Shown here piece after piece: positions 40,087 through 54,748 of a stretch of DNA of 64,000 nucleotides. The stretch covers positions 55,481 through 119,480 of the forward strand of contig CAZRYF010000001.1 in the NCBI GenBank assembly GCA_964604165.1, read 5' to 3'. Under the pieces are notes generated by a model. The model was not told the origin of the DNA, ran no database searches, and saw nothing but the letters and a program-made list of their open reading frames with translations. The translations under genes were made by a program, and so were the position numbers. This DNA is from an uncultured Enterobacterales bacterium. GTDB lineage: Bacteria > Myxococcota_A > UBA796 > CAJQPC01. How positions within the stretch are numbered: the first letter of the stretch is position 1; each line of letters starts with the position of its first letter.

Positions 40087-40836
40087 ATGGCACGAGCACA
40101 CGTCGAGGGTCTAAGGCGGTACGACGCCATGACGATTCAGGTGCTCGCAGGTGACCTGCTGCGGGTGCCACTTAGTGGGGTGGATCGAAGAAGCCTCTGT
40201 GATCTGGTGGCCCTGTCGGAGCGAACGGACTTGCCTGTTCAGCTGACCCGGGACCTCCAAAGGTACCGGGAACAGATGCTCCGGGAGTTCAATGACCTGC
40301 CCGATGGGGACAAGCTGGGACTCTTCCTGACTGAATTGGCTGAGGTGGACGCTGACCGGGTTCCAGCCAGCCTCCGAACGGGGGTTTTGGCCCGCAGTGA
40401 GGAGCACCTGCTACCTCGCACCATGGAGTTGTTCGAGGGGCTGGTCAGGCACTTTGACTCTCTGGAGCCCATGGATGCTGAGTCCACCGACAAGCCGGCA
40501 GTGCGGGTAGAGCAGGTGCAGGCGAAAAAGAAGCCCGTGGCCCGCACCGAGGCAAAGCGCAGCGCCCCGCGACGCCGTGATGAACCCCGTAAGCCAGCGA
40601 AGCCAAAGATCACCCCTGAGAGAGCCGAGTGGATTCGCATTGATGTCCTGGCGCGGCTGGCGGACTACCCGAACCAGGGCCTGAAGCAGGCCATGCTGGT
40701 GGCGGGTGCCCGACACCGATCGCCATGGAACGACCTCAAGGAGGCCGAGGTCGTGATTGTGCTCAAGAGCCTGGAGTCCGGAAACCGGGTCCGGAAGAAT
40801 GGCGGACGGTGGATTCGCGTCGCGAAGATTCGCTAA
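40087..40836 (+). CDS. Hypothetical protein with a central Lys/Arg/Pro-rich region
   Basis: ATG at 40087 preceded by GGGAGGGA. No recognised motif. Its stop overlaps the convergent stop of the PgsB-like gene. Confidence 0.5.
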   Translation: MARAHVEGLRRYDAMTIQVLAGDLLRVPLSGVDRRSLCDLVALSERTDLPVQLTRDLQRYREQMLREFNDLPDGDKLGLFLTELAEVDADRVPASLRTGVLARSEEHLLPRTMELFEGLVRHFDSLEPMDAESTDKPAVRVEQVQAKKKPVARTEAKRSAPRRRDEPRKPAKPKITPERAEWIRIDVLARLADYPNQGLKQAMLVAGARHRSPWNDLKEAEVVIVLKSLESGNRVRKNGGRWIRVAKIR

Positions 40837-43800
40837 AGGAGCGGGTCGTCTCTGAGGGGACCCTCCAGTGGCTCCACTGGCTCCAGCCCTCCCAGAACCT
40901 GGGCGGCCCGGCCCACGGAGATCCTGTGATCCGCGAGGTCCCTCCAGACTTGTTCCGCCTGCCGGCGTTGATGAATTGCCCACAGGGGCGCCAGCTGACC
41001 GGAGAGCCAGGAGATGGCTCGCGCAAAGCCGCTCATGGGAACCCGCCCCAGGGCCAGGGCGGCCTGCCGCTCCCCGATAGCTGCGTCCAGTTGGGCTACA
41101 GCGGTTCGACGCGGCTCGTGTAGGCCTTCCTCCAGATCCATGGACTGGACCAGGCTTCGGGCCTCCAGGAGGGCAGGCAGGCAGGCGGGCGGAGGATGAC
41201 ACAAGGCCTGGACCGCATCGGGAGCAGTCTGGGGATCGGCAAGCGACTCCAGAGTGGCCTGCAAGCTGGCTGCGTGCACCCAATCCCGGGCGAGTCCCAG
41301 ACCCGGTCCGCCGATGTTCTGGATGCCCATGGCGCGAACGTTGGATCCCGCCGGGCAAACCCTCGCCACGAGCCCCGTGATGCGATCTCCAAGAGGAGCG
41401 GCATCCTCCAGAAGGTGAATGTGGGAGAGGAAGATCTCCCGGCCGAGAATTCGCGCGGCCTCGTCCCGTTCCTTCACGTCGTCTGTTGCGCTGCTGAACC
41501 GTACCAACGCAGCAAACGCCATGGCCTCCGCTGCAATGTTGAGCCAGTCATTTGCCAGGTCGGTGGTCCCGTTCCTCCTATCCATCTCGTCGTGAAATGC
41601 GGTTCCCTGGGCGGTCCCTGCCAGGGCTTCCAGGCGAGGCAGCAACGGCTCCAGCAAGGCACGGGCATCAAGAAGCCCCAAAGGCTCGGTGGGGGGCTGC
41701 CCTACAGCCTGGTCCAGGGCCCGGGTGACGGACAGAGTCAACGGCCTGTCCAGTCCAAGCCGTGTGGCGGTGCTCCGAACCAAGGCTCCAGGTGCCACCA
41801 GGCACAGGCGGCTTCGAAGTTGGTTGAGGCGGCGCTGAACGCCTCGAGGCTCAGAACCCAAGGAGAAATCTGCCAGGGTTGCCCCCAGCTGGGCTTGAAT
41901 TTCCGCCAGCAAACCCCGCACGTTTGACCCCATGAGGATGTGCCGGTGGGCGGTGGCACGGTGCACCAGCAGCTCGGCGAACACCCGGGATCGCGCCACC
42001 CGATCCCGGCGATTGTTCACGACGGTGACCAGGAATTCATCGGGCTTGGACTGGGAGCCAAATTCGCTGAACCCCGCCCTCTTCCAGCTCGAGAGAAATC
42101 CCATTCGGTGGTTTGCGGACATGGCGTTTGTAAAGGAGACCCGACGTCCGAGGTGCCGGAATGGTCCCGCCGTGGCCAGGGATCCCAGGTCGGGCACCAC
42201 GTGGTCCGCCAGGAGAATCAAAGCCTCCTCGTCGTCCAGGCCAAGCTCACGCGCCATGGCCCGCACCAGGGCAAGGTTCTGGGGGTGCTCCCCGTAAGGA
42301 AAACGCTCCAAGAGATCCTTGGGCACGGCCTCGGTGGTCTCCACAGCTCGAAGGGGGGCCTCCTTCTTGTGGGCCGCCTCCCGGAGGAGGGGAAGCATTT
42401 CTTGTTCTGTGGTGAGGATCGGTGCGCCGGGAGGAATGAAACGACCGATCACCCGGGCCACATCCTCAGCACCGGGTCCCTGGACGTCCTCGTGATCCGG
42501 GTGGGCGTTGGTCAGGGTGGAGAGATCATCCCGGGTCCATTCTCGCTGGAGCTGGTCGACGTAGTCGCCGCGAAGCGCCATGCACTCCCATAGGAGAACC
42601 CGAGGTTGCAGTGCGGCCGCCCGTTTCAAAAAGGTGGGGTGCTCCCAGATGCTGGCCTTGCCCATGGGGCGCTCCCATCTCAAGACCTCCTGAATTCCGC
42701 CTCCTGGTGAGTACAACGCGGAGGCTTCCGTCCCCGTGGTACGGCAGATCACGGAGTAGCCAAGGCCCTGAAACAACGCGGCTTTCAAGCGCTCCGTGCT
42801 GGTCTTCCCGCGGGTCCCCCATCCCCCGATGACCAGGGGCAAGACCGCCCGGTCTCGGCGAATGACATGCTGGGCCCAGACAAGTCGTGAGAAATACAGA
42901 AAGGCCACCGCACCAGCGGCCACGGCGAGATCGCCGGGCGTGTTCCGGTGTGCACCCAACATCAATGCCAGCGGCGAGAGGAGGCCTCCAAAGTACTGCT
43001 CAATATGGGGAGTGGGCATGCCTGCGTCCCCGTGGGTCTCAAAATCCATGGTGAAGCCGAGTTCCGTCAATCCGGCGGCAAACCGTCCCCGCCCTTCGGG
43101 ATCCGTTGCTGACAAGGCGTTCATGCGGGCATCGGCAAGGGACTTCATGTGCCAGTTGATCGACCACTGGGCCTTGATTCGCGCGGAAGTGTTCCGTGGT
43201 GCGGAGAGGGTGGTGACACCCTGGGAGGTCACCAGCACAAGGGTGCCCCAATCAGCGGCCTCGATGCAGTCCTCGGGCATGGGGAGCCAAGGGGCCCAGC
43301 TCTCCAACCGTTCATCCCGGACTCTCTGGCCCGGGTGGGTTGGAGCGGCTCCACCTAGTCTTTCCGGCGGGACGCGAATCGGACCATGGGCTGCTCGACC
43401 CGTGAGATGATCGCCCAGGTGTCTCTTGTCCGGTGCGGGATTGCGGAATTCATGCAAGAGGCGCCAGAAACGGATCACCTGCTTCTCTCCACGGGTCACC
43501 CGGACCTTTCCCTTGGAGGCGGGGGCCAGGGTGTACCCGTGGCTGTGATCGGCGGAAAACACCAGTGCGCGGGCGAGGTCCATGGGGCTTCCGTCGGGCG
43601 GGAGCGCCACAATTCGACTCCGTCCCACCGGCAGGTTCGCCAGGACGTCCGAGAGCGCATCCATTTCCGGACTCGGAACGTGGCGGGTCCTGTGCAGAGG
43701 GTCCTCAAGTCGTGCCCGTGGATGTCCGTGCTCCCGGAGCAGCCTCCGTGCCCTGGCCCGTACGCTGGGTGCCGGATCAGTGCGGGAGAAGGAGCGCAGC

Positions 43801-44666
43801 AGGTCGGTGGCGGCGGGTGTTTGATCGGCCGCCATTCCGTCTAGAAGGGCGCATCTCACGGTCTCGGATTCATCGGCTTGTGCAGCTGGCACCACCCAGG
43901 CTCTCCATGAGGAGGGGCCGGCCAGTCCCGCCCGCACGGCCTGGGCTCGCAGCAAGAACTGGCTCTCACCGCCCGCGTCGCCTGTGAACACTCGCTGGAA
44001 CACCTCCTGCGCTTCGCTCTCCGCCAAGCTTTGAAGGACTCCCAGGCACCGCCGCGCCGTCAGAATGTCGTCATTTTGAATGTTCTCCACGAGTCGCGTG
44101 GTGCGAAGAGAGTCGGCGGTGACTTCTTCCTGTCCGCGAACCGCGTGGGAGACAAGCGTGGCAGCGGCTGCACGCCGGGTGGGCAGACGCGGGTCACCCA
44201 AAAGCAGGCTCAGGAACTGTACGCCTCGGGTCTCCAGGGGTGTTTCGGAGAGAAGTGCGGCCAGGATCTCCAGGTGCACCCCATGTCGATCGATTCCCAG
44301 GTGCAGTCTTTCCAGTACGGCCGACGGATCCAGCCATCTCTTCATGGCCCTCAGATCTCCCCACAACGCTCGGCCTCGACGGGTGCGCCGCAGGTGGTGT
44401 TCCAGGGTGCGCTGGCGGGAGCGCTCGTTGTCGGCCATGAGAAAGGCGTCGGACAGCTGGTCCCGCTGGTTGATGTCCAGATCCCTTGCACGCAAGATGT
44501 CCATTCCCAAGCGTGCGACCGTTTCGCTCTTGCTGTTGTCCAGCAGCTGTCCCAGGTAGTCCACCGCCGGGCCACGAAGGCGTACCAACAGGGCAGGCAG
44601 TTGTTCTGCAAGGTCCAGCCCGTTGGGGGTGGTGGGTCCTCCCCCGGTTGGAATGGCGTGGTTCAT
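40833..44666 (-). CDS. Giant PgsB/CapB-like Mur-ligase-family amide ligase: about 580-aa N-terminal helical-repeat extension, one TM segment, and a C-terminal extension
   Basis: Start MNHAIP at 44666 (ATGA overlap). aa 605-925 line up block by block with B. subtilis PgsB as I remember it. The blocks are the P-loop GTRGKTS (42798-42818), TTGTEA, ECMAL..DY, NAHPDHEDVQGP, FTNAMSAN and VVNNRRDRV. Confidence 0.75.
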   Translation of the reverse strand: MNHAIPTGGGPTTPNGLDLAEQLPALLVRLRGPAVDYLGQLLDNSKSETVARLGMDILRARDLDINQRDQLSDAFLMADNERSRQRTLEHHLRRTRRGRALWGDLRAMKRWLDPSAVLERLHLGIDRHGVHLEILAALLSETPLETRGVQFLSLLLGDPRLPTRRAAAATLVSHAVRGQEEVTADSLRTTRLVENIQNDDILTARRCLGVLQSLAESEAQEVFQRVFTGDAGGESQFLLRAQAVRAGLAGPSSWRAWVVPAAQADESETVRCALLDGMAADQTPAATDLLRSFSRTDPAPSVRARARRLLREHGHPRARLEDPLHRTRHVPSPEMDALSDVLANLPVGRSRIVALPPDGSPMDLARALVFSADHSHGYTLAPASKGKVRVTRGEKQVIRFWRLLHEFRNPAPDKRHLGDHLTGRAAHGPIRVPPERLGGAAPTHPGQRVRDERLESWAPWLPMPEDCIEAADWGTLVLVTSQGVTTLSAPRNTSARIKAQWSINWHMKSLADARMNALSATDPEGRGRFAAGLTELGFTMDFETHGDAGMPTPHIEQYFGGLLSPLALMLGAHRNTPGDLAVAAGAVAFLYFSRLVWAQHVIRRDRAVLPLVIGGWGTRGKTSTERLKAALFQGLGYSVICRTTGTEASALYSPGGGIQEVLRWERPMGKASIWEHPTFLKRAAALQPRVLLWECMALRGDYVDQLQREWTRDDLSTLTNAHPDHEDVQGPGAEDVARVIGRFIPPGAPILTTEQEMLPLLREAAHKKEAPLRAVETTEAVPKDLLERFPYGEHPQNLALVRAMARELGLDDEEALILLADHVVPDLGSLATAGPFRHLGRRVSFTNAMSANHRMGFLSSWKRAGFSEFGSQSKPDEFLVTVVNNRRDRVARSRVFAELLVHRATAHRHILMGSNVRGLLAEIQAQLGATLADFSLGSEPRGVQRRLNQLRSRLCLVAPGALVRSTATRLGLDRPLTLSVTRALDQAVGQPPTEPLGLLDARALLEPLLPRLEALAGTAQGTAFHDEMDRRNGTTDLANDWLNIAAEAMAFAALVRFSSATDDVKERDEAARILGREIFLSHIHLLEDAAPLGDRITGLVARVCPAGSNVRAMGIQNIGGPGLGLARDWVHAASLQATLESLADPQTAPDAVQALCHPPPACLPALLEARSLVQSMDLEEGLHEPRRTAVAQLDAAIGERQAALALGRVPMSGFARAISWLSGQLAPLWAIHQRRQAEQVWRDLADHRISVGRAAQVLGGLEPVEPLEGPLRDDPLL

Positions 44667-47600
44667 CGCTTGCCCTCGGGAATGTCCAGTGCGGTGCGAA
44701 ACGGCAGGTCCAGCGGCGAGTGATCCCGCAAGCCTCGGTGGGGACCTCGCTGTACCTCCGCCTGGGCATAGATATCCACCGCTCCAATGGTGGGCAGGTA
44801 TTGACCCCCGGCCCCCAGGGAGATCCTGGTGCGGCTGCCAAGCCAAACGGACTGCATGATCTGCCCCGTGGCACGAGGGCGCCAATAGGCCTCAACCCGG
44901 GCAGGCTCGACAAATCGATATCCCATGCCGGGGGAAAAGGTCAGCCGGGTGCCTGGAGCGAGCAGGCAGTCCAGGCGCAGAGAGCCCTCTATCCAATTGG
45001 GGCGAACAAGAGCAGTGGACCGGCCCTCCAGGGTGAAACGAAGCCGCCCATCTCGAAGGGGGCGCCAGTCTGCGTGTGCCCCCAGTCCAAGTCCGCCTGG
45101 ATGGAGGCGCTCGTACGCGTTCCAGGCCGCGGGGTCCACGGCCACAAGGGAGGACTCGGACCACCGCCCCAAGTGGGCCGTGGCGAATGGCTTGGCGCTC
45201 CAGTTTGGGGCAAGGGGAACCTCTCGGCGTAGTTCGGCGGCCGCGCGGACGTGGCCTGCCCCTCCCGAAAAGCCACCATCCAACGCGGTTCGTAGGAGCC
45301 ATGGATCCCAGGAACGGGTCCAGCGGGCCTCTGCCAGGGTGCCTGGAACAGACTGGAGACTGGTGCGGTTCTGAACCTCAAAAAACAACCAATCCTGGGA
45401 AGAACCGAGCCGCTTTCGGAGGGTCACACGGGCGGCTTGAAAGCCGTGGTTGGTCAGGTCGTCCCGGACGCCGGTGGCGTCATTGCCCAGCAAATAGGCG
45501 CCGGAGATCGTGCCTGTGCGCCCCATGGGTAGGGGCATTGGACTGGCTGGAAAGGCAGACTCAGCCAGCCAACGCTGTGCGTGTTGCGCTGCGAGCGGAT
45601 CGGGTGAGGGTTTGGGAGGGGTGGGCCTCAACCCGCTGACCTCCCCCCGTGGCCAGGTGGACTCCTCTGCCTGCAAGCGAGACAACGACACCCGCGTGTT
45701 CAGTGGCCCCCGCAAACGGACCTGCTGCAGTCCATGGGCGGGTAGGGGCACCATACCCACACTCTCAATGGTCCATGTTCGGTCTCCCACCATGGCCTGG
45801 ACCGGTTGATTGCCGTGTACTCGAATGCGCAGGAGGCTCTCACCGGCCACCCGGAGCGAGAGGCCCTTGGCACCCAGCCTGTGGACCGCAGCCCGTCGGG
45901 TCGGGGGGAGCGCAGTCTCGTTGTGCACCAGCTGAACCCCAAGGGCGCATCCGGGGGCGGCCCTCATCATGCGAAGGACGTGTTCGCCTTCCGAAAGCGC
46001 CCATTTGTGGTGCACGGAGGGCCCGAAGAGAACCTCCAACTCGGTCAGGGTGCCATCCAATTCCAACCCGAGTGAGCAGGCTGGAGGAGAGATCGCGTGG
46101 GTTTCATCCGAAGACACCGCCGAAAGCTCAAGGGTCCCACCGCCGTGTATTTCAACCCGCACGATGCCTCCTGCCCGGAGGACCACGTGCTCTTCTGGAA
46201 CCCAGGGTGCAGCAAGCATGGCGTCCCGGGCCAGCCTGAGCACGCTGTCGCCGGGTTTGGGTCCCCGCCGGGGCACGTCGACCGAGTCGGAACCACCGTC
46301 TTCATCGACTCGGGTGATGTGTTGCCAAGGGGCGCTGGCGGCGATCTGGAGGCGGGCGACCCTGCCCAGGTCACCTGCCAAGGATGCGTGAAGCCAGGCG
46401 GTTCCCGGGCGCAGATCCTTAAGGTACATCTCGGCGAGCGCGAGGTGGACGGGGGCGTCAATGCGATCCGGAAGGTGCGCCGCGAGGCGCTCCAGCCCGC
46501 TGGTCGTGGCAGGAGCGGCGATCCCAGCCCGGCCGGCAGCAGCCGCCAGGGAAATGGGGCCGGGCATGGGTGCTGAGAGAACCAAAGGCTGGGCATTCCA
46601 ATACAGGTGACTGGCTTGCTGGATCTGCTCAAATGTGGCACCCGGCATTCCCCCTGCAGCGGAGGCTTCTGCCCGGGCAGAGGCGTGGAGGCCCAGGGTC
46701 GCAAGCTGCTGGGCCCGAGAGAGTCGCAGGGAGACCCGCTCCCCGGGGTTCCTGGCTTTGCGGAGATTGGCGCTGTCCAACCGCAGCTGCTCCAGGGGGT
46801 CTATGCCCGGTACGACGGAGGCCGCTGAGCCCCGCTCCAGTGCCCTGCGAAAGGCCGCACCTACCAACACCTCCTGCTCGGCCACGACCTCCAGGTGGTC
46901 GGCCCATGGGCCCACGGGGACTCGCACTCTGGAGAGACCTTCATGAGACTCTGCCTCCCAGGTGTGTCCGTCGGAGGTGGCGATCACCAACCCGGTCGCG
47001 CTGCCTTCAATCAAGAGCTCCACCTCTCCAGGAGCGCCGACATCGGGCAAGTACCAAGCAGCCGGAGTGCGCATGGCAGGTCGCTCCCGGAATGGAGTCC
47101 CCCCATCTACCAGGTCGCCCTCCAGCGCCTCCAGGATTCCTTCTTGCACTTCCACCCGGTGGTTTCCAGCTGAGACCGCCTCCGCAAACAGACCTTGGCC
47201 CCGAAAGGGAATTCCATCCAGGGTGAATTGCACAGGCGCCTCGGAGCGAAGACGAAGGATGGGGTACTCACCGTTGCCAGGTTCGGGTGCGGTAATGCCG
47301 ACACTCTGGCCTGCGTGAATCCACGCCCGTGACGTGCCGCCCCGAAGACCGGGCGCCTTCAACGACTCTGTCGCACGGTCGGCCACCGGTACCGGCCACA
47401 GTGCGGACCAGCGAGCGTGAACATCCGTCCCCGTGGGAAGCTCCGCCAAGGTTCGGATGGCAAGGCCGCGAGAACGGTAGAACCCGGCTGGAATCTGGTC
47501 TGCGACTTCAGCCAACAGGGATGGATCGATGGGAAGCTCACCCCCCAATTCCACTAGCAGAGCAGGGTCCACATCCCGCCAGCGCTGCCAGCGACGTGCG

Positions 47601-48679
47601 AGGGCCAGTGCTGTGAGGGGGTCGGCGGTTGCCTCGGAAAGGTGGGCGAGCGCCTGGTCGGGATCCGGGTGATGTTCCACAAGACGTGCCCGCGCCAGAG
47701 GGGCCGCAGAGGTGTCCAAGAGCGCCTCGGCAGCCGCCACGCAGGCGACGTTGTCCAGGCCCAAGTGCGCGGACTCCATTGCCCGAAGCAGGTCCCGTGG
47801 GTGGCTCCGGTCGAGACGGGCATGGCGTAGGACGGAGTGCAGACTTGGACGAAGACGAAGAAGGGAAGGCTGCAAGCTCGCGGAGCCCCCCTGCACCTCC
47901 ACCGAGAGCGTGTGGATGCCGTGCGGAAGCAGGACATGGGTGCGTCGGAGGTGCGTCCAGCCAGGTACCTCGGGGTTTTCGGAGGCCCCGAGAGCTGCAT
48001 GGTGGATGGGGGTGTCATCCTTTGCCACCACAATCGCGTAGCGTACATATCCAGCCTCGGTTGTCGGGGTGCGGGTGGCCAACTCCAACAGTCCTGGCCC
48101 TCGAACCTCCAGGGAGTGGGATTTGCCATCCGCCAATTCAGTCGGAGGAAGGAGGAGGGTGCCGTGATCGGCGGCGGACCGAGCACGGACCTTTTCAAGC
48201 TCCAGCAGGGCAGCGGCGTATTGGAAGTGGTGGGCCCGGGTTCCCATAGAAGAGAATGCCTCTCGCCGTGCGCTCCACTCGACCTCCAGGGCTGCGATGG
48301 TGGCGGGGGCTTGGGGAAACGCTCCTCCTGTACGAAACCACCTGGAGAGGCGCCGTTCGTAACGGCCCCAGGCCTCTGCATCTCCGTCGTGGGTCTCCAC
48401 CCAGCCATCGATCTGGCTGAAGTCGGCCAAGCGCAGCTCCACGGCGCGTTCCCGGGTCGGTGCTGGCAAGAGCACCGTGCCTCCCGGGCCTTCCGCAAGG
48501 TCCAGACGAAGCCCCTCGCTCCAAGCGGACAGCGCCTTGGGGAGGGGGTCAAAATGGAGGAGCACGCGCTGCCCAGCCTTCTGCGAGATGACGAGCTGTG
48601 AGCGGGGTTCGTTGTCGATTCGGTCCTGGGGAATCCAGGCGGTGGCAAGAGCCGTCTGCACCAGAAGGAGCCACATCAT
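44663..48679 (-). CDS. Giant secreted protein (1338 aa), unknown function
   Basis: Signal peptide MMWLLLVQTALATAW. ATGA overlaps at both ends. No catalytic motif recognised. Recurrent G-x-H-x-[LV]-x-V beta-sandwich-like motifs. Confidence 0.7.
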   Translation of the reverse strand: MMWLLLVQTALATAWIPQDRIDNEPRSQLVISQKAGQRVLLHFDPLPKALSAWSEGLRLDLAEGPGGTVLLPAPTRERAVELRLADFSQIDGWVETHDGDAEAWGRYERRLSRWFRTGGAFPQAPATIAALEVEWSARREAFSSMGTRAHHFQYAAALLELEKVRARSAADHGTLLLPPTELADGKSHSLEVRGPGLLELATRTPTTEAGYVRYAIVVAKDDTPIHHAALGASENPEVPGWTHLRRTHVLLPHGIHTLSVEVQGGSASLQPSLLRLRPSLHSVLRHARLDRSHPRDLLRAMESAHLGLDNVACVAAAEALLDTSAAPLARARLVEHHPDPDQALAHLSEATADPLTALALARRWQRWRDVDPALLVELGGELPIDPSLLAEVADQIPAGFYRSRGLAIRTLAELPTGTDVHARWSALWPVPVADRATESLKAPGLRGGTSRAWIHAGQSVGITAPEPGNGEYPILRLRSEAPVQFTLDGIPFRGQGLFAEAVSAGNHRVEVQEGILEALEGDLVDGGTPFRERPAMRTPAAWYLPDVGAPGEVELLIEGSATGLVIATSDGHTWEAESHEGLSRVRVPVGPWADHLEVVAEQEVLVGAAFRRALERGSAASVVPGIDPLEQLRLDSANLRKARNPGERVSLRLSRAQQLATLGLHASARAEASAAGGMPGATFEQIQQASHLYWNAQPLVLSAPMPGPISLAAAAGRAGIAAPATTSGLERLAAHLPDRIDAPVHLALAEMYLKDLRPGTAWLHASLAGDLGRVARLQIAASAPWQHITRVDEDGGSDSVDVPRRGPKPGDSVLRLARDAMLAAPWVPEEHVVLRAGGIVRVEIHGGGTLELSAVSSDETHAISPPACSLGLELDGTLTELEVLFGPSVHHKWALSEGEHVLRMMRAAPGCALGVQLVHNETALPPTRRAAVHRLGAKGLSLRVAGESLLRIRVHGNQPVQAMVGDRTWTIESVGMVPLPAHGLQQVRLRGPLNTRVSLSRLQAEESTWPRGEVSGLRPTPPKPSPDPLAAQHAQRWLAESAFPASPMPLPMGRTGTISGAYLLGNDATGVRDDLTNHGFQAARVTLRKRLGSSQDWLFFEVQNRTSLQSVPGTLAEARWTRSWDPWLLRTALDGGFSGGAGHVRAAAELRREVPLAPNWSAKPFATAHLGRWSESSLVAVDPAAWNAYERLHPGGLGLGAHADWRPLRDGRLRFTLEGRSTALVRPNWIEGSLRLDCLLAPGTRLTFSPGMGYRFVEPARVEAYWRPRATGQIMQSVWLGSRTRISLGAGGQYLPTIGAVDIYAQAEVQRGPHRGLRDHSPLDLPFRTALDIPEGKR

Positions 48680-49533
48680 GGGGTCTCTCCAGCCTCGAGA
48701 AGTGCCAAAGAAAATGCTTCCCGGCGTGACTCCTCGGTGAGAAGCCCCTCACGTGCGGCACGGGAGAGCTCCAGGTGAAGAAAGGCAGCGCTGCTGGACA
48801 ATCCACGACCTTGGACGTTCTTGGTTCCAGCCAACTCGGGGAGGGAAGCCCCATTCACAACGGGTCCGAGGTCTCCCATGACCTCCTGCAGCGCGGCCAG
48901 CAGCCCTTGCTCAAACCGTGAAGGCTGGAGGGCGGATCCCGCCGAGACCACGACGGATTCCCCGTCACGCGGTGCGAAGCCGTGGATTTGCACCACGATG
49001 GGATCGGAAAGCCCCCGCGCCGCCCCAAGGGTGGCAGCCTGAAACAAGGAGGCGGGTCGGTGGGCCACATCGGGATGTACCTCTTGCTTCTCTTCCCCCC
49101 CGGGCCCCCCAAAGCGATGGCCCTGGTTGAAGAAAGCTGCTCGTGCTGCACCGGATTCGAAGAGGTCGGCCACCAGGCGCCCGGTGTCCAGGTCATACCA
49201 CCCGTGGGGCGCCTCCAGGACGAGAGAGGGGGCCGGGCCAAGGCGAACGACAAAAACGCCGAGAGGAACGTCCTTTGCGCCCCAGAGCAGCACCCGTTCC
49301 TCCTCGATGCGAAGGTGAAGTCCCAGGTGGGCTGCCCGTGACACCAGATCCGCCGGCACGTTTCCAGTGGGTGCGACCGCAAACAGGTCCATCATCAGGC
49401 TCTGCATGTCCAGGCGCTCGCCGGGAGAAAGGTCACCAAAGGGGGCGTCTCTTCTGGCTTTGTCCACGGTGGTCCAGAGATCATCCGCCCGTGCGGGATG
49501 CAGGAGAAAAAACAAGGCAAGCCAGCTGCTCAT
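48676..49533 (-). CDS. Secreted putative zinc amidohydrolase (PghP / N-formylglutamate amidohydrolase-like fold)
   Basis: Start MSSWLALFFLLHPARA (ATGA overlap). Candidate metal ligands in LEAPHGWYDLDTG (H110, D114/D116) and VVQIHGF (H184), resembling the PghP-family HGG..E ... IHGY pattern. Confidence 0.5.
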   Translation of the reverse strand: MSSWLALFFLLHPARADDLWTTVDKARRDAPFGDLSPGERLDMQSLMMDLFAVAPTGNVPADLVSRAAHLGLHLRIEEERVLLWGAKDVPLGVFVVRLGPAPSLVLEAPHGWYDLDTGRLVADLFESGAARAAFFNQGHRFGGPGGEEKQEVHPDVAHRPASLFQAATLGAARGLSDPIVVQIHGFAPRDGESVVVSAGSALQPSRFEQGLLAALQEVMGDLGPVVNGASLPELAGTKNVQGRGLSSSAAFLHLELSRAAREGLLTEESRREAFSLALLEAGETP

Positions 49534-51929
49534 CGGCCGTCCATCTCCCACCTGGGGCTTGTGTCGGTCAAAGGTTCCGGAGCGCTACCCGCATCAAACC
49601 GCAGGTAGACTGGGCCATCACTGCGGGTCACCCGCACGCGAACCCGGTGGGTTCCGGACAACAGGTCGTCTCCAAGGGGGATGTACAGGGCACGCCTGGG
49701 GACAAGGGCACCGCTGGCGCGATCCTCCATCCAGGCGCCGCCTCCTCGAGGAGCGGGCCGCCCGCTGACGACGGCGGGGGTAATTCTCTCAACCCGTCCA
49801 TACCGGCGCCGGGGGTTTCCCCCGTCGACCCTGGCCTCCAGGGTTGGGCCGGCTCTTCCCTCGGGTGTGTAGCTGCGCACATAGAGGGTGGTGCCGCCAG
49901 CGGGCACCTGCACCAGGACCTCCAGATCCTTCCGATCCCCCCGAACCACTCGGCGCCGCGCCCACTTTCGGCCATCACCGGGCACGTCTGCAAGATAGCG
50001 CCCCACAGGAGCGGTCAGGCGGCAGGGCTGTTCTCCCGGGGGCAGCCCATCAAAGTGTACGGAGGAGGCTGCAGCGGGAAGCCGGCTGGTGACAGACGTG
50101 TCTCCGCAGTTCAGCGTGATGGGACGCCCCGAGGATAGAGGGTCCACCCGGTAGTCCACCCGGACCCTGCCGCTTTCCGGAACCAGGAGCTGGTTGATGG
50201 GCGCCAGGCGGGTGCGATCCCAGGCCTGCCAGAGGCGACGGGTTCGGCGCACCGGTTCGGAGATCAAGTGCGACTCGCTTCTCCCCTCTGGAACGACGGT
50301 TCGGGTGCGCCAGGCGCCAGGGGTTGGAACCTTCTCTGGAAGGACAGGCCGGACTGTTGCATCAAATCGTACGAGCCGGTGATTCTCAGCCAAGGAGGCC
50401 GCGTGGTTCGGGGAGACGGACACGTAGGGCGCTTGGACCCAGGGTGCATTGTGGGGGCGCCATTGACCGGGAAGATCATAAGCAGCAGCCCGTTGGCCCG
50501 AATCCAGGGGAACCAAGAAGCGCATATCCACTGGAGAGTCCGTGGCCAGGCGCAAGGTGATTGCTTCTGGGGGATGAAGAATCTGGATGCTCGTGGCCTC
50601 ACTCATGGGGGAGGTCTCGGGCTCGATTCTGTGCTCCAGGGGGGTGGGAAGAAAGGGCGCATCAAATGCACCTTCCACAAGGACCTGGTCCTCGCGCCCC
50701 AACAGCTGGTACCGAATGCGCGTCAAAAGGGGGTCTTGTGTGGCAGCGTGCGGTGTCCAATCCTTTGGTGGAAGAGGCCTTGCCTTGACCTTGAGGCGGC
50801 CGTGGCTTGTCCCCGTTGCCAGGGGAATCTCCAGGGGGTCAGACTCTGGAGAGAGATGCCAGGCGGTGAGACGACGAGTCTCCGGAGCGATGGTTTGTTC
50901 CATCCCACTGCCTGGGGGCGCGCCCCAAAGGCACTGGGGGGAGGGGTGTGCGGTGAAGGCCAGGGACACAGGGTCGCTCTCCAAGGGCACGTTCCACCTC
51001 AGGGTCACCATTTCCCCGGGGTTGGCCGCCAATGGATGGTCCGTCGTTTCCACCCCTGAATCGTCGGTGACGGGCTCGCCGTGCACCAAGATGCGCTCCA
51101 CGTCCAACGTGACCGGTAGCTGGTCGGGAAGACTCCGCGCGGTCATCTCGATCCGGCAGGGCCCGATCAAGGTGAGCTGCGTCGCTTGGCCGGGCTCCAA
51201 GCGCACACCCTTGGGATGGGTGGTCGGTGCACGGTGAATCGGGCCGAGCCGATGAAGGGCACGGGTCGTTCCGGACAGGCTCTCGGCAGCCACGGGGCGC
51301 GTGTCTGCGCTGGCAAGACGGATGCGCTCCACTTCCTCCAGGGCGGTCCACGGAAAGGGGCCAGCCCTCTCCGCTCTGCTGTTCATCAGGTTCTCGGACT
51401 GCAGATGGAGGGCCACCGTGGCCGAATCGGGTCGTTGTCGGCTCTCGACTCGAACCTGCAGGCGCATATCGGACGTCCCCAGCAAGGGAGAAATTGTCAG
51501 CAAGCCGCCTTCGGGGGCCAACTTGGCAAGGGGCACGTCCACCCGGCGAATGTCTGTGAGAACCATGCCTGCCCGGGCCCCGTGGATTCGCTCTGCTCCG
51601 TTTTCCAGCAGGCTGCGCCGTGCTCGAAACCACAGGTCATGGGTGAATTCCTCTCCCTGGTGGGGCTGCAGTCGAAGTTGAACGCCAAAGGTCCAGGTCT
51701 GGGTCTCATCTCGGGCAGGAGGCTCGGGCACTTCCAACGCCATGGAGAGCACCAGGCTGGACTCCCCCTGCGCCAGCCGAACGCTCACGGCAGTCTCTGG
51801 ATCAAGGGCGTAAAAGAGCGACCGATCTCCCGTGGTACTCGAGGGTTCATCCACCCGGGTCGTCAGGGCTTCTGTGATGCCTGCAGCAAGGAGCGCCCAA
51901 CCGAGAATTGGCAATGCGAACCGTGTCAT
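49530..51929 (-). CDS. Large secreted protein (799 aa), unknown function
   Basis: Signal peptide MTRFALPILGWALLAAG. ATGA overlaps at both ends. Looks beta-rich. No recognised domain. Confidence 0.7.
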   Translation of the reverse strand: MTRFALPILGWALLAAGITEALTTRVDEPSSTTGDRSLFYALDPETAVSVRLAQGESSLVLSMALEVPEPPARDETQTWTFGVQLRLQPHQGEEFTHDLWFRARRSLLENGAERIHGARAGMVLTDIRRVDVPLAKLAPEGGLLTISPLLGTSDMRLQVRVESRQRPDSATVALHLQSENLMNSRAERAGPFPWTALEEVERIRLASADTRPVAAESLSGTTRALHRLGPIHRAPTTHPKGVRLEPGQATQLTLIGPCRIEMTARSLPDQLPVTLDVERILVHGEPVTDDSGVETTDHPLAANPGEMVTLRWNVPLESDPVSLAFTAHPSPQCLWGAPPGSGMEQTIAPETRRLTAWHLSPESDPLEIPLATGTSHGRLKVKARPLPPKDWTPHAATQDPLLTRIRYQLLGREDQVLVEGAFDAPFLPTPLEHRIEPETSPMSEATSIQILHPPEAITLRLATDSPVDMRFLVPLDSGQRAAAYDLPGQWRPHNAPWVQAPYVSVSPNHAASLAENHRLVRFDATVRPVLPEKVPTPGAWRTRTVVPEGRSESHLISEPVRRTRRLWQAWDRTRLAPINQLLVPESGRVRVDYRVDPLSSGRPITLNCGDTSVTSRLPAAASSVHFDGLPPGEQPCRLTAPVGRYLADVPGDGRKWARRRVVRGDRKDLEVLVQVPAGGTTLYVRSYTPEGRAGPTLEARVDGGNPRRRYGRVERITPAVVSGRPAPRGGGAWMEDRASGALVPRRALYIPLGDDLLSGTHRVRVRVTRSDGPVYLRFDAGSAPEPLTDTSPRWEMDGR

Positions 51930-54748
51930 CGCTGCCTCCGAAAGCCGATGGCGGCTCCCGTTGTGCGCAAGGCCTGGATATCACCGGCCCGGTCCGCTAC
52001 CTCTCCGTTGTAACGGGAAAGAGGCACCACCATGAGTGTGCCCCGCCGAGATGCCTTCAAGTACGGCACGTCGTCCCCGTCCACGATGACTTCCAGAGAG
52101 ACGCCAGCCTGGATTGCCTGTCGCTGCAGTCGCTCCAGCTCCCCAGGATGGGTGGTGCGTCCGTAGCGGGCGAGGTTCTCCAAAACCCGTCCGTACAGGG
52201 CCCGCACATCCTCGGGCGAGATCGGTTCATGGGCCAGGAGCGTCTCCAGCGACTCATCCCGAACAGGTAGACCCACGGCTTGAAGGGCGGACCTGAGGGA
52301 GCTGGAGTCGGCGAGGGCTGGGAAGCGAAGGCGGTAAAGGGGAGAGAGCCACACCGAGAGAAACCGGCCCTGGGCCAACTCCACCATGTCGCGCCGGGCA
52401 TTGGACGGGTCGTGGAACCGAAATTGAGTGGCTTCGCCTGTGTACGCCAGCGTGGTGCCGCCGGCCCTTTCTACCAGGCGCTGGGTGGCCTCCAACTCCG
52501 CCGGCACCTTCTCGGTGGGGAGGAGCGGTCGGCCCAGGGAAACGATGGCGTCAGCGCCGGGATTCTCGTCCTGGCGGAAGCCTGCCACGGAGACCACGCT
52601 GACGTCTTCGGTCTCCAGGGCAAGGCGCCGAAGGACCGTCCCCTCCCCGGATTGAAAGCCGGCGCGATCCAGCGCCCGGGCGTCTCGGTCTGCGTTGGCG
52701 TCATGCACCACCAGGGCGCTTCCCTGCATTGCAGCCCACCAGCTTCGGGCCACCAACGCTGTCCCGGCCTGCCTTCCCCCTGCGGGGGCCTCGAAGATCC
52801 AGGGGCTGTGGGTGCGGCGCAGCCAAAGAGTCCACCGGGGGGATTGGCGGCCAGGTCCCGGGCCCAGGGAGAGCGTGTCCTCATCTGCGGCAACGGTGAG
52901 CTTCAAGTCTGCTGCATGTGCCGCCGCAAGATTGGCCCACCTGGGATCCCCGGTTCGGGCCAGGAGAAGTGGCTGAACTACGCCCCGATCGAGGGTGGCG
53001 AGCTCCTGGGCTGTTGGGAGTAGGGGGGCGGTGGCCAGGTGGTTGCCCAACAAGGGGACGCGCCCAGAATTCACGGTTCCTGCAAAGCGCAACAATGCAG
53101 CGCTCAACCGATCGGACTCGCTCATGGACAGGGTGATCGTCCGTGGATCCGTAGCATTCCACTGGGTGGTCAGGGAGCCCAAGACCCGCTGGAGAACGTC
53201 CAGTTGGAGCCCCTCTGGCAAGGATCCAGCGGCTTGCAGGGAGGTCTCCACGCTTGTTTGGAGGAGTAGGAGGTGGTCCGCCTCTTCCCTCGCAAGGCCA
53301 AGCAGGAGGGGCGCAGGAGAGAGAGCCAAGGCCTGGGCGTCGAGGAGCTCCGCCAGGACAATGGCCGCCTCGGTCATGGCGGGGACGCTGTGGGCTTGAG
53401 GGGCCACAATCCAAAGGCCGGTGGAGGACTGTGGACGAAACCAGAGGCGCCCGAGTCCGGTGTCCTCTTCGCCCTGAAGAACCCAACCGTCCGTGTGGTT
53501 GTCCACGCGGAGGCCCGGGACCTGGCTGGGCCAGCCCTGCTGGGCTGCATCCCACGAGGATCGCAAGGTTGCTTCATCGGGCTCCCGGCCGGCCAGATGA
53601 GGCAAGACGCCCCTGGCCATCGCCTGCCAGGCCGGAATCTGAGGGGGAGGCGCCAGCGCGGCGGGGGTGTCCGCTGCCAGCGGTCGGACCTCCTCCAAGG
53701 CCATTCCCACACCGGTGCCCAGGACAAATCCCCCAAGGGACGCAAGTGTGGTGGGCAGAAGCACCCGCATCAGCTGGCCCTGTCGCCAGCAACGCACGAC
53801 CACAAGCGACGGCAGGAGGTACCCAAAACCAAAAAGGTCAGTGGCCCGCAGCCCGGGGGCGCTCTCGCCTAGCCAGACTGCGAGACCCATTTTCAAGAGG
53901 TAGGAAACGGAAAAGGCCAACACCAGCGGCCGAAGTCCTGACAGGTTCACCCGGGAAAAAGGGGGAATGCGAGTCAGGACCCTCAGGATCCAGACGGTGA
54001 CCAGCACTTCGGCCAGGGTGGCCAGCAGCTGCTCTGGGTGAATCCAGGCAATGGCCAAAAGTCCGGGAACGAGGACCCCACCAAACTCCCAGCCGAACCG
54101 CAGGTTGAGCCGCATGGCGAGCAGAGTGCTCACCAGGAGAAGGATGTAGGCCCGGGGCACAGAGACAAAATCGTGTGCCAGGTTTTCATAGGTAAAGGCG
54201 AAGTGGGACAGGTTCAGGTTTGTGTAGGGGAGCAGCACACCATCCAGCAGCCAGTAGACGGCCAGCACGGGAAGTCCTACCAGAGGCACCCCCCGCAGTA
54301 GCCCCGGCATCCAAAGGGCGTTGGCGGCAAGTGGAACCAGAACCAGGCCCATGGAATGGAAGGGGCCCTGGACATCCCATCCCATGGAAACCGCAAAGTC
54401 CTCACCCCAGCCGGCCTCCACGGCGAGGCGCACGAAGACGCTGCACAGGAGAATCAGGAAGAACCGGTCTCTGCCAAAGGGCCGACTGATGGGGAACACC
54501 TTGGGCAGGCCGCGACCCAGGGCCATCGCGAGGGCCCAGGTGAGTACAGCTTCCACGGCGATGACCGCCGCCGCTGCGGGCTGGATGACCAGCACACCCG
54601 CCAGGTATCCAGGCACAACCAGTCCGGACTGGGGCCAGCCGTAGAGCTCTCCCAGCAAGAAAAGCAACAAGACACCCAGCAGAACCGCTGTGAAGAGGCT
54701 GCTGTCTACGTAGGTGTTTGGAACAAGGGGAAGGAGAGCGGAGGGCAC
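51926..54748 (-). CDS. Tandem PgsC/CapC-like membrane modules fused to a roughly 600-aa C-terminal region holding two degenerate copies of the 48676-49533 amidohydrolase-like fold
   Basis: GLVVPGYL (54602-54625), GRDRFFLILLCSVFVRL and MGLVLVPLAANAL match PgsC blocks. A second module repeats them (GGVLVPGLLAIAW, LRPLVLAFSVSYLLKM, FGYLLPSLVVVRCWRQG). GTG start at 54748 has no clear SD. Confidence 0.7.
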   Translation of the reverse strand: MPSALLPLVPNTYVDSSLFTAVLLGVLLLFLLGELYGWPQSGLVVPGYLAGVLVIQPAAAAVIAVEAVLTWALAMALGRGLPKVFPISRPFGRDRFFLILLCSVFVRLAVEAGWGEDFAVSMGWDVQGPFHSMGLVLVPLAANALWMPGLLRGVPLVGLPVLAVYWLLDGVLLPYTNLNLSHFAFTYENLAHDFVSVPRAYILLLVSTLLAMRLNLRFGWEFGGVLVPGLLAIAWIHPEQLLATLAEVLVTVWILRVLTRIPPFSRVNLSGLRPLVLAFSVSYLLKMGLAVWLGESAPGLRATDLFGFGYLLPSLVVVRCWRQGQLMRVLLPTTLASLGGFVLGTGVGMALEEVRPLAADTPAALAPPPQIPAWQAMARGVLPHLAGREPDEATLRSSWDAAQQGWPSQVPGLRVDNHTDGWVLQGEEDTGLGRLWFRPQSSTGLWIVAPQAHSVPAMTEAAIVLAELLDAQALALSPAPLLLGLAREEADHLLLLQTSVETSLQAAGSLPEGLQLDVLQRVLGSLTTQWNATDPRTITLSMSESDRLSAALLRFAGTVNSGRVPLLGNHLATAPLLPTAQELATLDRGVVQPLLLARTGDPRWANLAAAHAADLKLTVAADEDTLSLGPGPGRQSPRWTLWLRRTHSPWIFEAPAGGRQAGTALVARSWWAAMQGSALVVHDANADRDARALDRAGFQSGEGTVLRRLALETEDVSVVSVAGFRQDENPGADAIVSLGRPLLPTEKVPAELEATQRLVERAGGTTLAYTGEATQFRFHDPSNARRDMVELAQGRFLSVWLSPLYRLRFPALADSSSLRSALQAVGLPVRDESLETLLAHEPISPEDVRALYGRVLENLARYGRTTHPGELERLQRQAIQAGVSLEVIVDGDDVPYLKASRRGTLMVVPLSRYNGEVADRAGDIQALRTTGAAIGFRRQR

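Follow-up and report, generated by a model that had tools for sequence, protein, structure and literature searches.

The window analysed in this work, a stretch of 64,000 nucleotides (nt) of contig CAZRYF010000001.1, carries on its minus strand a gene (positions 40833-44666) for a long-form ligase of the PgsB family. The gene is a single uninterrupted open reading frame (ORF) of 1277 amino acids (aa), with an 87%-identical orthologue of the same length in an independent metagenome-assembled genome (MAG). Canonical PgsB has 393 aa, so that the more than threefold enlargement claimed in the first-pass annotation of this DNA, made from the sequence alone, is correct. We consider it probable that its product is the ATP-dependent amide ligase of a Gram-negative (diderm) system related to the poly-gamma-glutamate synthase PgsBC, and that two proteins which some lineages still encode by adjacent, translationally coupled genes are naturally fused in it. 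To our knowledge, poly-gamma-glutamate synthesis has been studied almost only in Bacillus, where the polymer is an industrial product, and for its part in virulence as a capsule.

The gene and its ligase core

We take the ATG at 44666 as the real start because it lies within an ATGA overlap with the stop codon of the 1338-aa upstream gene, behind a Shine-Dalgarno-like GAGGG motif, and because the closest relatives (P0004, 87% identical, also 1277 aa) start at the same position. With the farthest in-frame alternative, the TTG at 44885, the gene would reach about 220 nt into its upstream neighbour. At the other end, the stop codon TAG (40835-40833) overlaps the TAA (40834-40836) of the convergent plus-strand gene 40087-40836 in the sequence CTAA, the tail-to-tail arrangement already described for this locus. 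The product of the convergent gene has no Pfam or NCBIfam match.

An AlphaFold2 (AF2) model of aa 78-1277, built from 54 sequences, reached a predicted local distance difference test score (pLDDT) of 85.9 and a predicted template modelling score (pTM) of 0.85, and the protein could be divided into eight structural segments. Mean identity of the relatives to the query is highest in the ligase core (55%), followed by a short return to the core fold (42%) and an alpha/beta module (37%), and is lower in the N-terminal arm (26%), the C-terminal tail (23%), an insertion in the core (22%) and a linker (20%). The first-pass annotation had recognized the hydrophobic anchor and the PgsB-like core; its domain boundaries did not stand, and the alpha/beta domain and the internal insertion had been overlooked. 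Pfam, run on three thirds of the protein at E ≤ 10, found nothing beyond weak HEAT matches and a non-significant Mur_ligase_M match, and a search of PDB sequences with the single protein found no match at E ≤ 1. The alpha/beta module, the insertion and the tail had no Pfam match either in this protein or in 34 relatives.

The core proper (aa 608-915; 41922-42845, minus strand) comprises a Mur-ligase-type ATPase domain and most of the PgsB C-terminal domain, as seen in family models, profile alignment, invariant columns and structure comparison alike. The NCBIfam model of PgsB, TIGR04012, matches aa 587-919 with E 6.6e-53 and 179.8 bits over profile positions 6-325 of 380, which bears out the earlier claim of a PgsB-like core. 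The FolC model reaches only E 0.0075 on the same protein, and Mur_ligase_M of Pfam alone is non-significant (E 0.32). Canonical PgsB sequences were found with a sequence of Bacillus subtilis PgsB that served solely as a search query; the database returned, among others, B. subtilis PgsB itself (P0123, 393 aa, 99% identical to the query). When a profile of 40 long relatives was compared by hhalign with a profile of 16 canonical PgsB proteins of Bacillales, aa 584-919 aligned with PgsB aa 4-328, anchor helix included, at a probability of 99.9% and E 2e-36.

The catalytic residues fall in register in this alignment. The ATP-binding P-loop GGWGTRGKT (aa 614-622; 42801-42827, minus strand) is invariant in the 40 relatives and aligns with GIRGKS of B. 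subtilis PgsB. Besides the P-loop residues G617-T622 with K621, the key positions of the core are R666, E675, E694-C-M, N720, D724-H725-E726 and N852, together with N884-N885-R886-x-D888-R889; N847, A851 and N852 of the motif NGxxAN also align with canonical PgsB. Like the P-loop, E694 and D724-H725 are invariant in the 40 relatives, and these three elements correspond to K41, E111 and D141-H142 of B. subtilis PgsB. The full set of pairs invariant in both groups is K621 with K41, R666 with R83, E675 with E92, E694-C-M with E111-C-M, N720 with N137, D724-H725 with D141-H142, G730-P731 with G147-P148, N852 with N266, and N885, R886, D888 and R889 with N293, R295, D297 and R298. The concern, voiced with the first-pass annotation, that the core might lack the Mur-ligase ATP- and Mg-binding residues can thus be set aside.

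Structure comparison led to the same superfamily. A Foldseek search of the PDB with the AF2 model gave 73 matches at E ≤ 0.001; nearly all of the 50 matches listed were FPGS, MurC/E/F, pseudomurein ligases or the M domain of the cyanophycin synthetase CphA1, with E values down to 8e-7 (1o5z, FPGS). The model shows the fold of the Mur-ligase superfamily, with a central ATPase domain and a Rossmann-like C-terminal domain. No PgsB structure was among the PDB matches of the sequence, profile and Foldseek searches (for the family profile, among the best 60 of 74, and for Foldseek, among the 50 listed). Judged by its residues, the ligase core is homologous to PgsB and carries the complete set of catalytic motifs, and it looks active.

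The roughly 350 aa that follow the first part of the core had been described as a long C-terminal tail. The extension is real, but it is not a plain tail: about half of it is an insertion, after which the ligase fold resumes. The insertion (aa 916-1081; 41424-41921, minus strand) is specific to the clade and weakly conserved in sequence, and consists of eight helices placed by AF2 between strand 908-913 and strand 1083-1086. These 166 aa are not found in canonical PgsB, and the hhalign match ends at aa 919 (PgsB 328). A beta-alpha-beta return to the C-terminal domain follows at aa 1082-1120 (41307-41423, minus strand), with strands 1083-1086 and 1109-1115 and helix 1093-1102; it carries the invariant motif Q1116-N-I-x-G-x-G1122, whose counterpart in B. 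subtilis PgsB is GNIHGA (aa 370-375). An hhalign comparison of the tail alone with the canonical C-terminus aligned aa 1092-1122 with PgsB 349-376, a collinear match that is weak (P 0.036) and was used solely in combination with the AF2 topology and the invariant motif. The model topology and this match support the placement of the GNIHG-type motif after the 166-aa insertion. The remaining tail (aa 1121-1277; 40836-41306, minus strand) is helical to about aa 1260, with pLDDT mostly 85-95, and its residues D1226, R1233, L1244, R1248 and A1254 are conserved in the clade.

The N-terminal part and its split and fused forms

About 580 aa of HEAT/ARM-like repeats had been proposed upstream of the anchor. 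This description holds for aa ~78-320; aa 333-546 form an alpha/beta domain instead, and aa 547-579 are a linker. The N-terminal helical region (aa 1-320; 43707-44666, minus strand) is modelled with pLDDT mostly 85-95, and its antiparallel helix pairs are clearest at aa ~200-320. The arm is short, with three to four clear repeats, and is the most variable domain of the family. On the protein's own sequence, Pfam HEAT_2 (PF13646) gives E 1.5e-4 to 4.9e-4 and 20.8-22.4 bits, below the cut-off of 27.7; HEAT_2 is matched in 21 of 34 relatives, and the standalone homologue P0243 passes the cut-off with 32.9 bits. With the family profile, E is 2.6e-29 for alphaRep HEAT proteins and about 1e-6 for the PP2A-A subunit, and only HEAT proteins occur among the best 60 of the profile's 74 PDB matches. 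By these sequence comparisons the arm is clearly HEAT-like at the level of the family.

The alpha/beta domain (aa 333-546; 43029-43670, minus strand) has no known fold. Modelled alone (aa 328-566), it reached a pLDDT of 91.1 and a pTM of 0.89, and a Foldseek search of the PDB gave no credible neighbour (best E 0.77, template modelling (TM) score ≤ 0.2). It has no NCBIfam match in this protein. The domain is conserved in almost all relatives, with nine invariant residues (R392, R402, R415, T443, P445, W457, P462, G483 and R514) and two that are nearly so (K414 and H420). Such conservation suggests a functional site, which may bind an anionic ligand. The domain is a candidate for a new domain family.

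Searched exhaustively with HMMER, 1.84 billion cluster representatives yielded 439 with the alpha/beta module, 298 of them at E ≤ 1e-10. Among the best 150 of the 439, 116 also carry the ligase P-loop and are fused forms (median length 1383 aa), and another 20, with lengths of 659-845 aa, stand alone and have the module at the C-terminal end; the remainder are 12 short fragments and 2 unclassified sequences. In the 138 near-full-length sequences of these 150, no architectural context was found other than fusion to the ligase or a standalone protein of ~700 aa.

The point at which the two parts are joined can be located by comparison with genomes that keep them apart. The linker (aa 547-579; 42930-43028, minus strand) is variable, has pLDDT below 50 and contains no conserved columns. 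In BLASTP alignments with the split pair of locus L085 (7396-11690), the standalone N-terminal part ends at about aa 559 and the split ligase begins at about aa 555. The upstream product of genome G042 aligns with aa 185-559, and its ligase with aa 555-936 (46% identity) and 1077-1258. Since the split proteins of G042 align on either side of aa ~555-560, the disordered linker is the fusion junction. Split pairs occur in G042, G288 and G048, all of the window's phylum, where a gene of 689-739 aa for the N-terminal part lies directly upstream of a ligase gene of 714-749 aa, with a 4-nt overlap between them in G042 and G288. The same order, a gene for the HEAT arm and module upstream of a ligase gene, all on the minus strand, is seen at L085, L086 (5870-10230) and L093 (1763-6050). 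Across L085, L086, L093 and L031 the first protein has ~690-740 aa and the ligase ~715-770 aa, with a 4-nt overlap in L085 and L086.

A standalone N-terminal part occurs in about 15% of the relatives. All 20 standalone forms among the best 150 module bearers have a hydrophilic N-terminus without a signal-peptide-like sequence, and should therefore be cytoplasmic. On this evidence, the N-terminal part is a separable subunit, apparently cytoplasmic, that is here fused to the ligase, and the suggestion that the extensions dock secreted partners becomes unlikely. In a maximum-likelihood tree of the ligase cores, whose canonical sequences were from Bacillales only and left out five canonical PgsB genes of the same phylum, split forms appear in at least two places, one of them as sister to a fused Massilia protein with 100/98 support. 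Fusion or fission has therefore taken place more than once. Such natural split and fused pairs predict a physical interaction of the two parts (a Rosetta-stone fusion).

Operon, distribution and the probable product

The ligase gene stands at the end of a set of minus-strand genes. Its upstream neighbour (44663-48679, 1338 aa) overlaps it by the 4 nt of ATGA and is translationally coupled to it, a pairing that is kept in other species: homologous giant genes (1605-1788 aa) abut the ligase gene or the gene for the N-terminal part in Polyangium, Massilia, Lujinxingia and G042. At 51926-54748, also on the minus strand, lies a gene for a 940-aa protein with two CapC/PgsC domains (Pfam PF14102, E 5.9e-37, in two stretches), which is presumably the membrane partner of the ligase; CapC-domain genes of 1046-1087 aa occupy the equivalent position in Massilia and Polyangium. 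Three genes (44663-48679, 48676-49551 and 49530-51929, minus strand) separate the PgsC-like from the PgsB-like gene. Their products have no Pfam or NCBIfam match at E ≤ 0.01, and genes of similar size stand at their positions in Polyangium and Massilia. The cassette in Polyangium mundeleinium and Massilia glaciei accordingly reads CapC fusion, ~820-840 aa, ~260-370 aa, ~1600-1800 aa and long PgsB, with the last two genes overlapping by 4 nt in both species; Lujinxingia has a rearranged version. Of the partners that define a PgsBCA(E) system, PgsC/CapC is thus represented in the operon and PgsA/CapA is not. Two PGA_cap genes were seen elsewhere in the bacterium's own genome, at G000:C10:16973-17743 (191 bits) and G000:C36:16868-17578 (155 bits).

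The architecture is widespread. It is common to at least 349 clusters of proteins with 1250-1550 aa, and the fused form is present at no fewer than 514 loci in species-representative genomes. Carriers include Sorangium, Polyangium, Lujinxingia, Zhongshania, Vreelandella, Marinobacterium, Thiomargarita, Alteripontixanthobacter and Magnetococcus, and, as larger groups, Zetaproteobacteria, Acidobacteriota, Planctomycetia and Poribacteria. Where the ORF is complete, protein start and P-loop are 613-960 aa apart in almost all of the 80 best loci, and in all 80 the distance from the P-loop to the C-terminus is 627-791 aa, compared with ~356 aa in canonical PgsB. Existing database labels of the relatives are "capsule biosynthesis protein CapB" and "HEAT repeat domain-containing protein".

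We also surveyed 301 genomes of the window's phylum by TIGR04012 score. This phylum holds Lujinxingia vulgaris, as G055 has the same contig and coordinates as strain TMQ2 of that species, and was taken on this indirect ground to be Myxococcota in the sense of GTDB; NCBI files the species under Deltaproteobacteria/Bradymonadales. The scores fall into two classes with nothing in between. The upper class, at 390-485 bits, consists of about 67 canonical genes that cover the full model in frames of mostly ~390-560 aa. The lower class, at 175-224 bits, consists of about 33 long genes that cover the model to about position 330 and whose frames extend over 1145-3134 aa. Among the genes surveyed, three are split ligases (733-755 aa). 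The genome of the window has the long form only and no canonical PgsB.

Some of the relatives deserve separate mention. L005 (CAZSZE010000002.1), the closest relative at 87%, and several others are MAGs labelled 'uncultured Enterobacterales', a label that conflicts with the inferred phylum and is probably an automatic mislabel. Three proteins of 1799-1857 aa (P0040, P0060 and P0081) are 50-53% identical to the ligase protein, only over the core (26-28% of the query); they contain an extra ~400-500 aa, and P0040 has weak HEAT matches. The ligase at G096:C33:1337-2317 lies in an open frame of 3134 aa, and in L062 the P-loop is 2289 aa from the frame start; these two may be fusions of the ligase with the giant protein upstream, or the frame may simply be free of stops at high GC content.

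ATP-dependent amide ligation through an acyl phosphate is the established chemistry of PgsB, FPGS and the Mur ligases. In the reading that we favour, the protein would consist of a cytoplasmic accessory protein, made of the HEAT-like arm (aa 1-320) and the arginine-rich alpha/beta domain (aa 333-546), joined to a PgsB of the long clade with its anchor (580-607), core (608-915 and 1082-1120), insertion (916-1081) and tail (1121-1277). With ATP, the core would convert a carboxylate of the growing chain to an acyl phosphate, which the next glutamate would attack through its amine to give a gamma-linked chain, as in PgsB, FPGS and the Mur ligases. The product, by analogy poly-gamma-glutamate, would then be handed to the tandem PgsC-like membrane protein and to envelope-spanning partners. 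On the cytoplasmic side, the N-terminal part may pack on the ligase and act as its scaffold or regulator, with the HEAT arm serving protein docking and the basic alpha/beta domain binding an anionic ligand, polymer or membrane, and the helical insertion and the tail could offer further contact surfaces. A scaffolding or regulatory role is plausible, given that HEAT repeats typically act as scaffolds and that the N-terminal part can exist as a subunit of its own. A pTM of 0.85 over 1200 residues requires that nearly all domains be placed with confidence, and we infer from the model that the N-terminal part docks on the ligase in one assembly.

Several observations weigh against this reading. 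The TIGR04012 score is below the curated cut-off of 222.7 bits, so the protein does not qualify as a PgsB equivalog by that model. Pfam found no PGA_cap (PgsA/CapA, PF09587) match among the operon products. At least four genomes (G157, G042, G048 and G096) contain a canonical PgsB, with more than 400 bits in a frame of ~400-535 aa, next to a long or split form; this coexistence in one genome argues that the two forms are not redundant, and the long form may not be a simple functional equivalent of canonical PgsB. A very long branch separates the long clade from canonical PgsB in the ligase-core tree. The roles proposed for the N-terminal part, the insertion and the tail come from domain type and conservation only, a literature search found no paper on the long-form clade or its architecture, and in most fused members two supposedly cytoplasmic parts are joined through a single hydrophobic helix.

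An alternative is an enzyme with PgsB-like chemistry and another product, such as a different poly-amino acid or an amino-acid or peptide decoration on another acceptor, in which case the long clade would be a functionally distinct paralogue. The sub-cut-off score, the gap between the two score classes of the phylum survey, the genomes that have both forms, the long branch and an operon whose partners are entirely different and include no PgsA all speak for it. However, the invariants of the canonical C-terminal (substrate) domain, NGxxAN, NxRxDR and NIxG, are invariant in the long clade too, and the operon retains a CapC/PgsC-domain partner. We therefore regard a different product as unlikely, though as the strongest of the alternatives, and retain a PgsBC-related amide ligase as the preferred reading.

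The long PgsB proteins form a large, unstudied sister clade in Myxococcota, many Proteobacteria, Acidobacteriota, Planctomycetes and Poribacteria, in which the ligase has three clade-specific additions and stands in a different, envelope-spanning operon. They raise the questions of what polymer is secreted, how a PgsB-type ligase is regulated or scaffolded, and how its anchor engages the membrane partner. Culturable carriers (Massilia glaciei, Zhongshania antarctica, Marinobacterium weihaiense, Vreelandella rituensis, Polyangium and Sorangium) allow such questions to be tested. The main interest of the locus lies in the domain of new fold, the natural split and fused pairs, and a paradox of topology.

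The anchor helix and comparison with known systems

The paradox arises from the hydrophobic helix LAVAAGAVAFLYFSRLVWAQHVI, followed by RRDR (aa 580-607; 42846-42929, minus strand), which AF2 models as one helix of 28 residues. Its position had been likened to that of the N-terminal anchor of PgsB, and rightly so: in the hhalign comparison, aa 584-602 of the hydrophobic stretch (aa 580-602) align with aa 4-22 of B. subtilis PgsB. The anchor is internal here, not N-terminal as in canonical PgsB, and is the only Kyte-Doolittle peak above 1.5 in the protein (1.71). In 205 of 210 fused relatives it lies 32-39 aa before the P-loop. Canonical PgsB was placed in the cytoplasm by PhoA fusion (PMC7490850).

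If both the N-terminal part and the ligase are cytoplasmic and a single helix lies between them, an ordinary single-pass anchor is ruled out. A membrane hairpin was considered as a solution and rejected for the family: a second, separate hydrophobic segment is present in just 29 of the 210 fused relatives, and in the window protein there is only a short stretch of 14 residues. Possible arrangements are instead a re-entrant helix, a peripheral one, or one that enters PgsC from the cytoplasmic side. We put forward, tentatively and as something short of probable, a wider proposal in which the PgsB anchor is a re-entrant or subunit-embedded plug into PgsC, and the HEAT and alpha/beta part is a cytoplasmic control or processivity subunit whose arginine cluster binds the anionic end of the polymer, a nucleotide signal or an anionic lipid. 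If this were true, the topological model of the whole PgsB family would have to be revised and a new domain family defined, and a previously unrecognised control or processivity subunit would belong to a widespread Gram-negative machine for polyamide secretion.

The other way out of the paradox is to take the anchor as a true single-pass transmembrane helix with the N-terminus outside, which would make the HEAT and alpha/beta part periplasmic and able to dock secreted operon products. Only one hydrophobic helix is conserved, and the positive residues RRDR on its C-terminal side do suggest an N-out, C-in orientation. Against this, a signal peptide is lacking both in the fused protein and in the 20 standalone N-terminal parts, which begin with hydrophilic sequences, and AF2 places all domains in one confident assembly. 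We also know of no bacterial N-out anchor for which 580 arginine-rich residues are exported without a signal sequence. Taken together, a periplasmic N-terminal part seems to us quite improbable, and we keep to the cytoplasmic placement.

A frameshift or assembly error could in principle have joined two or three adjacent genes into one artificial ORF. This idea can draw on the relatives that encode the N-terminal part and the ligase as two genes but is dismissed here, as the linker is in frame without a stop, the independent MAG contains the 87%-identical ORF of exactly 1277 aa, another relative, 55% identical, has 1279 aa, the parts are fused in frame in 116 of the best 150 module bearers and in almost all of the 80 best genome loci, and the fused members include complete genomes of cultured Sorangium, Polyangium and Zhongshania. 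With the same single-ORF architecture in close and distant relatives, the extensions that the first-pass annotation had assigned to the protein, with the caveat that they might be separate genes, are genuine and conserved.

FolC/FPGS and MurC/D/E/F are the best structural neighbours of the AF2 model, headed by 1o5z, and MurC, MurE and the pseudomurein ligases reach TM scores of ~0.45-0.53 normalised on the target. In sequence, the similarity to these enzymes is marginal, as the FolC and Mur_ligase_M scores show. Unlike them, long PgsB has no UDP- or pterin-binding N-domain and is membrane-anchored.

The N-terminal arm resembles PBS-type HEAT proteins, alphaRep and the PP2A A subunit in the matches of the family profile (alphaRep and PP2A-A) and in the stacked helix pairs of the model, and differs from them in being short, with three to four repeats, and in a score of its own sequence that stays under the Pfam cut-off. 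Cyanophycin synthetase CphA1 offers a parallel of another kind, a Mur-type domain inside a larger polymer-making protein with extra non-catalytic domains, and was matched by Foldseek at E ~1e-6 (7lgj, 7lg5 and others). Only its M domain matches, however, with TM scores of 0.18-0.25 and a root-mean-square deviation above 30 over long alignments; long PgsB lacks the ATP-grasp G domain, and the alpha/beta module is unlike the CphA1 N domain.

The closest known system is PgsB/CapB of Bacillus. The long form departs from it in the ~580 aa before the anchor, the 166-aa insertion in the C-terminal domain and the ~155-aa tail, in its score of 179.8 bits against the cut-off of 222.7, in forming a separate deep clade, and in an operon without PgsA or PgsE, with other giant partners, in a Gram-negative host. 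It shares with PgsB/CapB the hydrophobic anchor ~35 aa before the P-loop, the series of motifs GxRGK[ST], KTTG, R...E-Q, ECMA, N...DH.D..GP, NGxxAN, NxRxDR and NIxG, a profile-profile match at 99.9% over PgsB aa 4-328, and a CapC/PgsC-domain partner in the operon.

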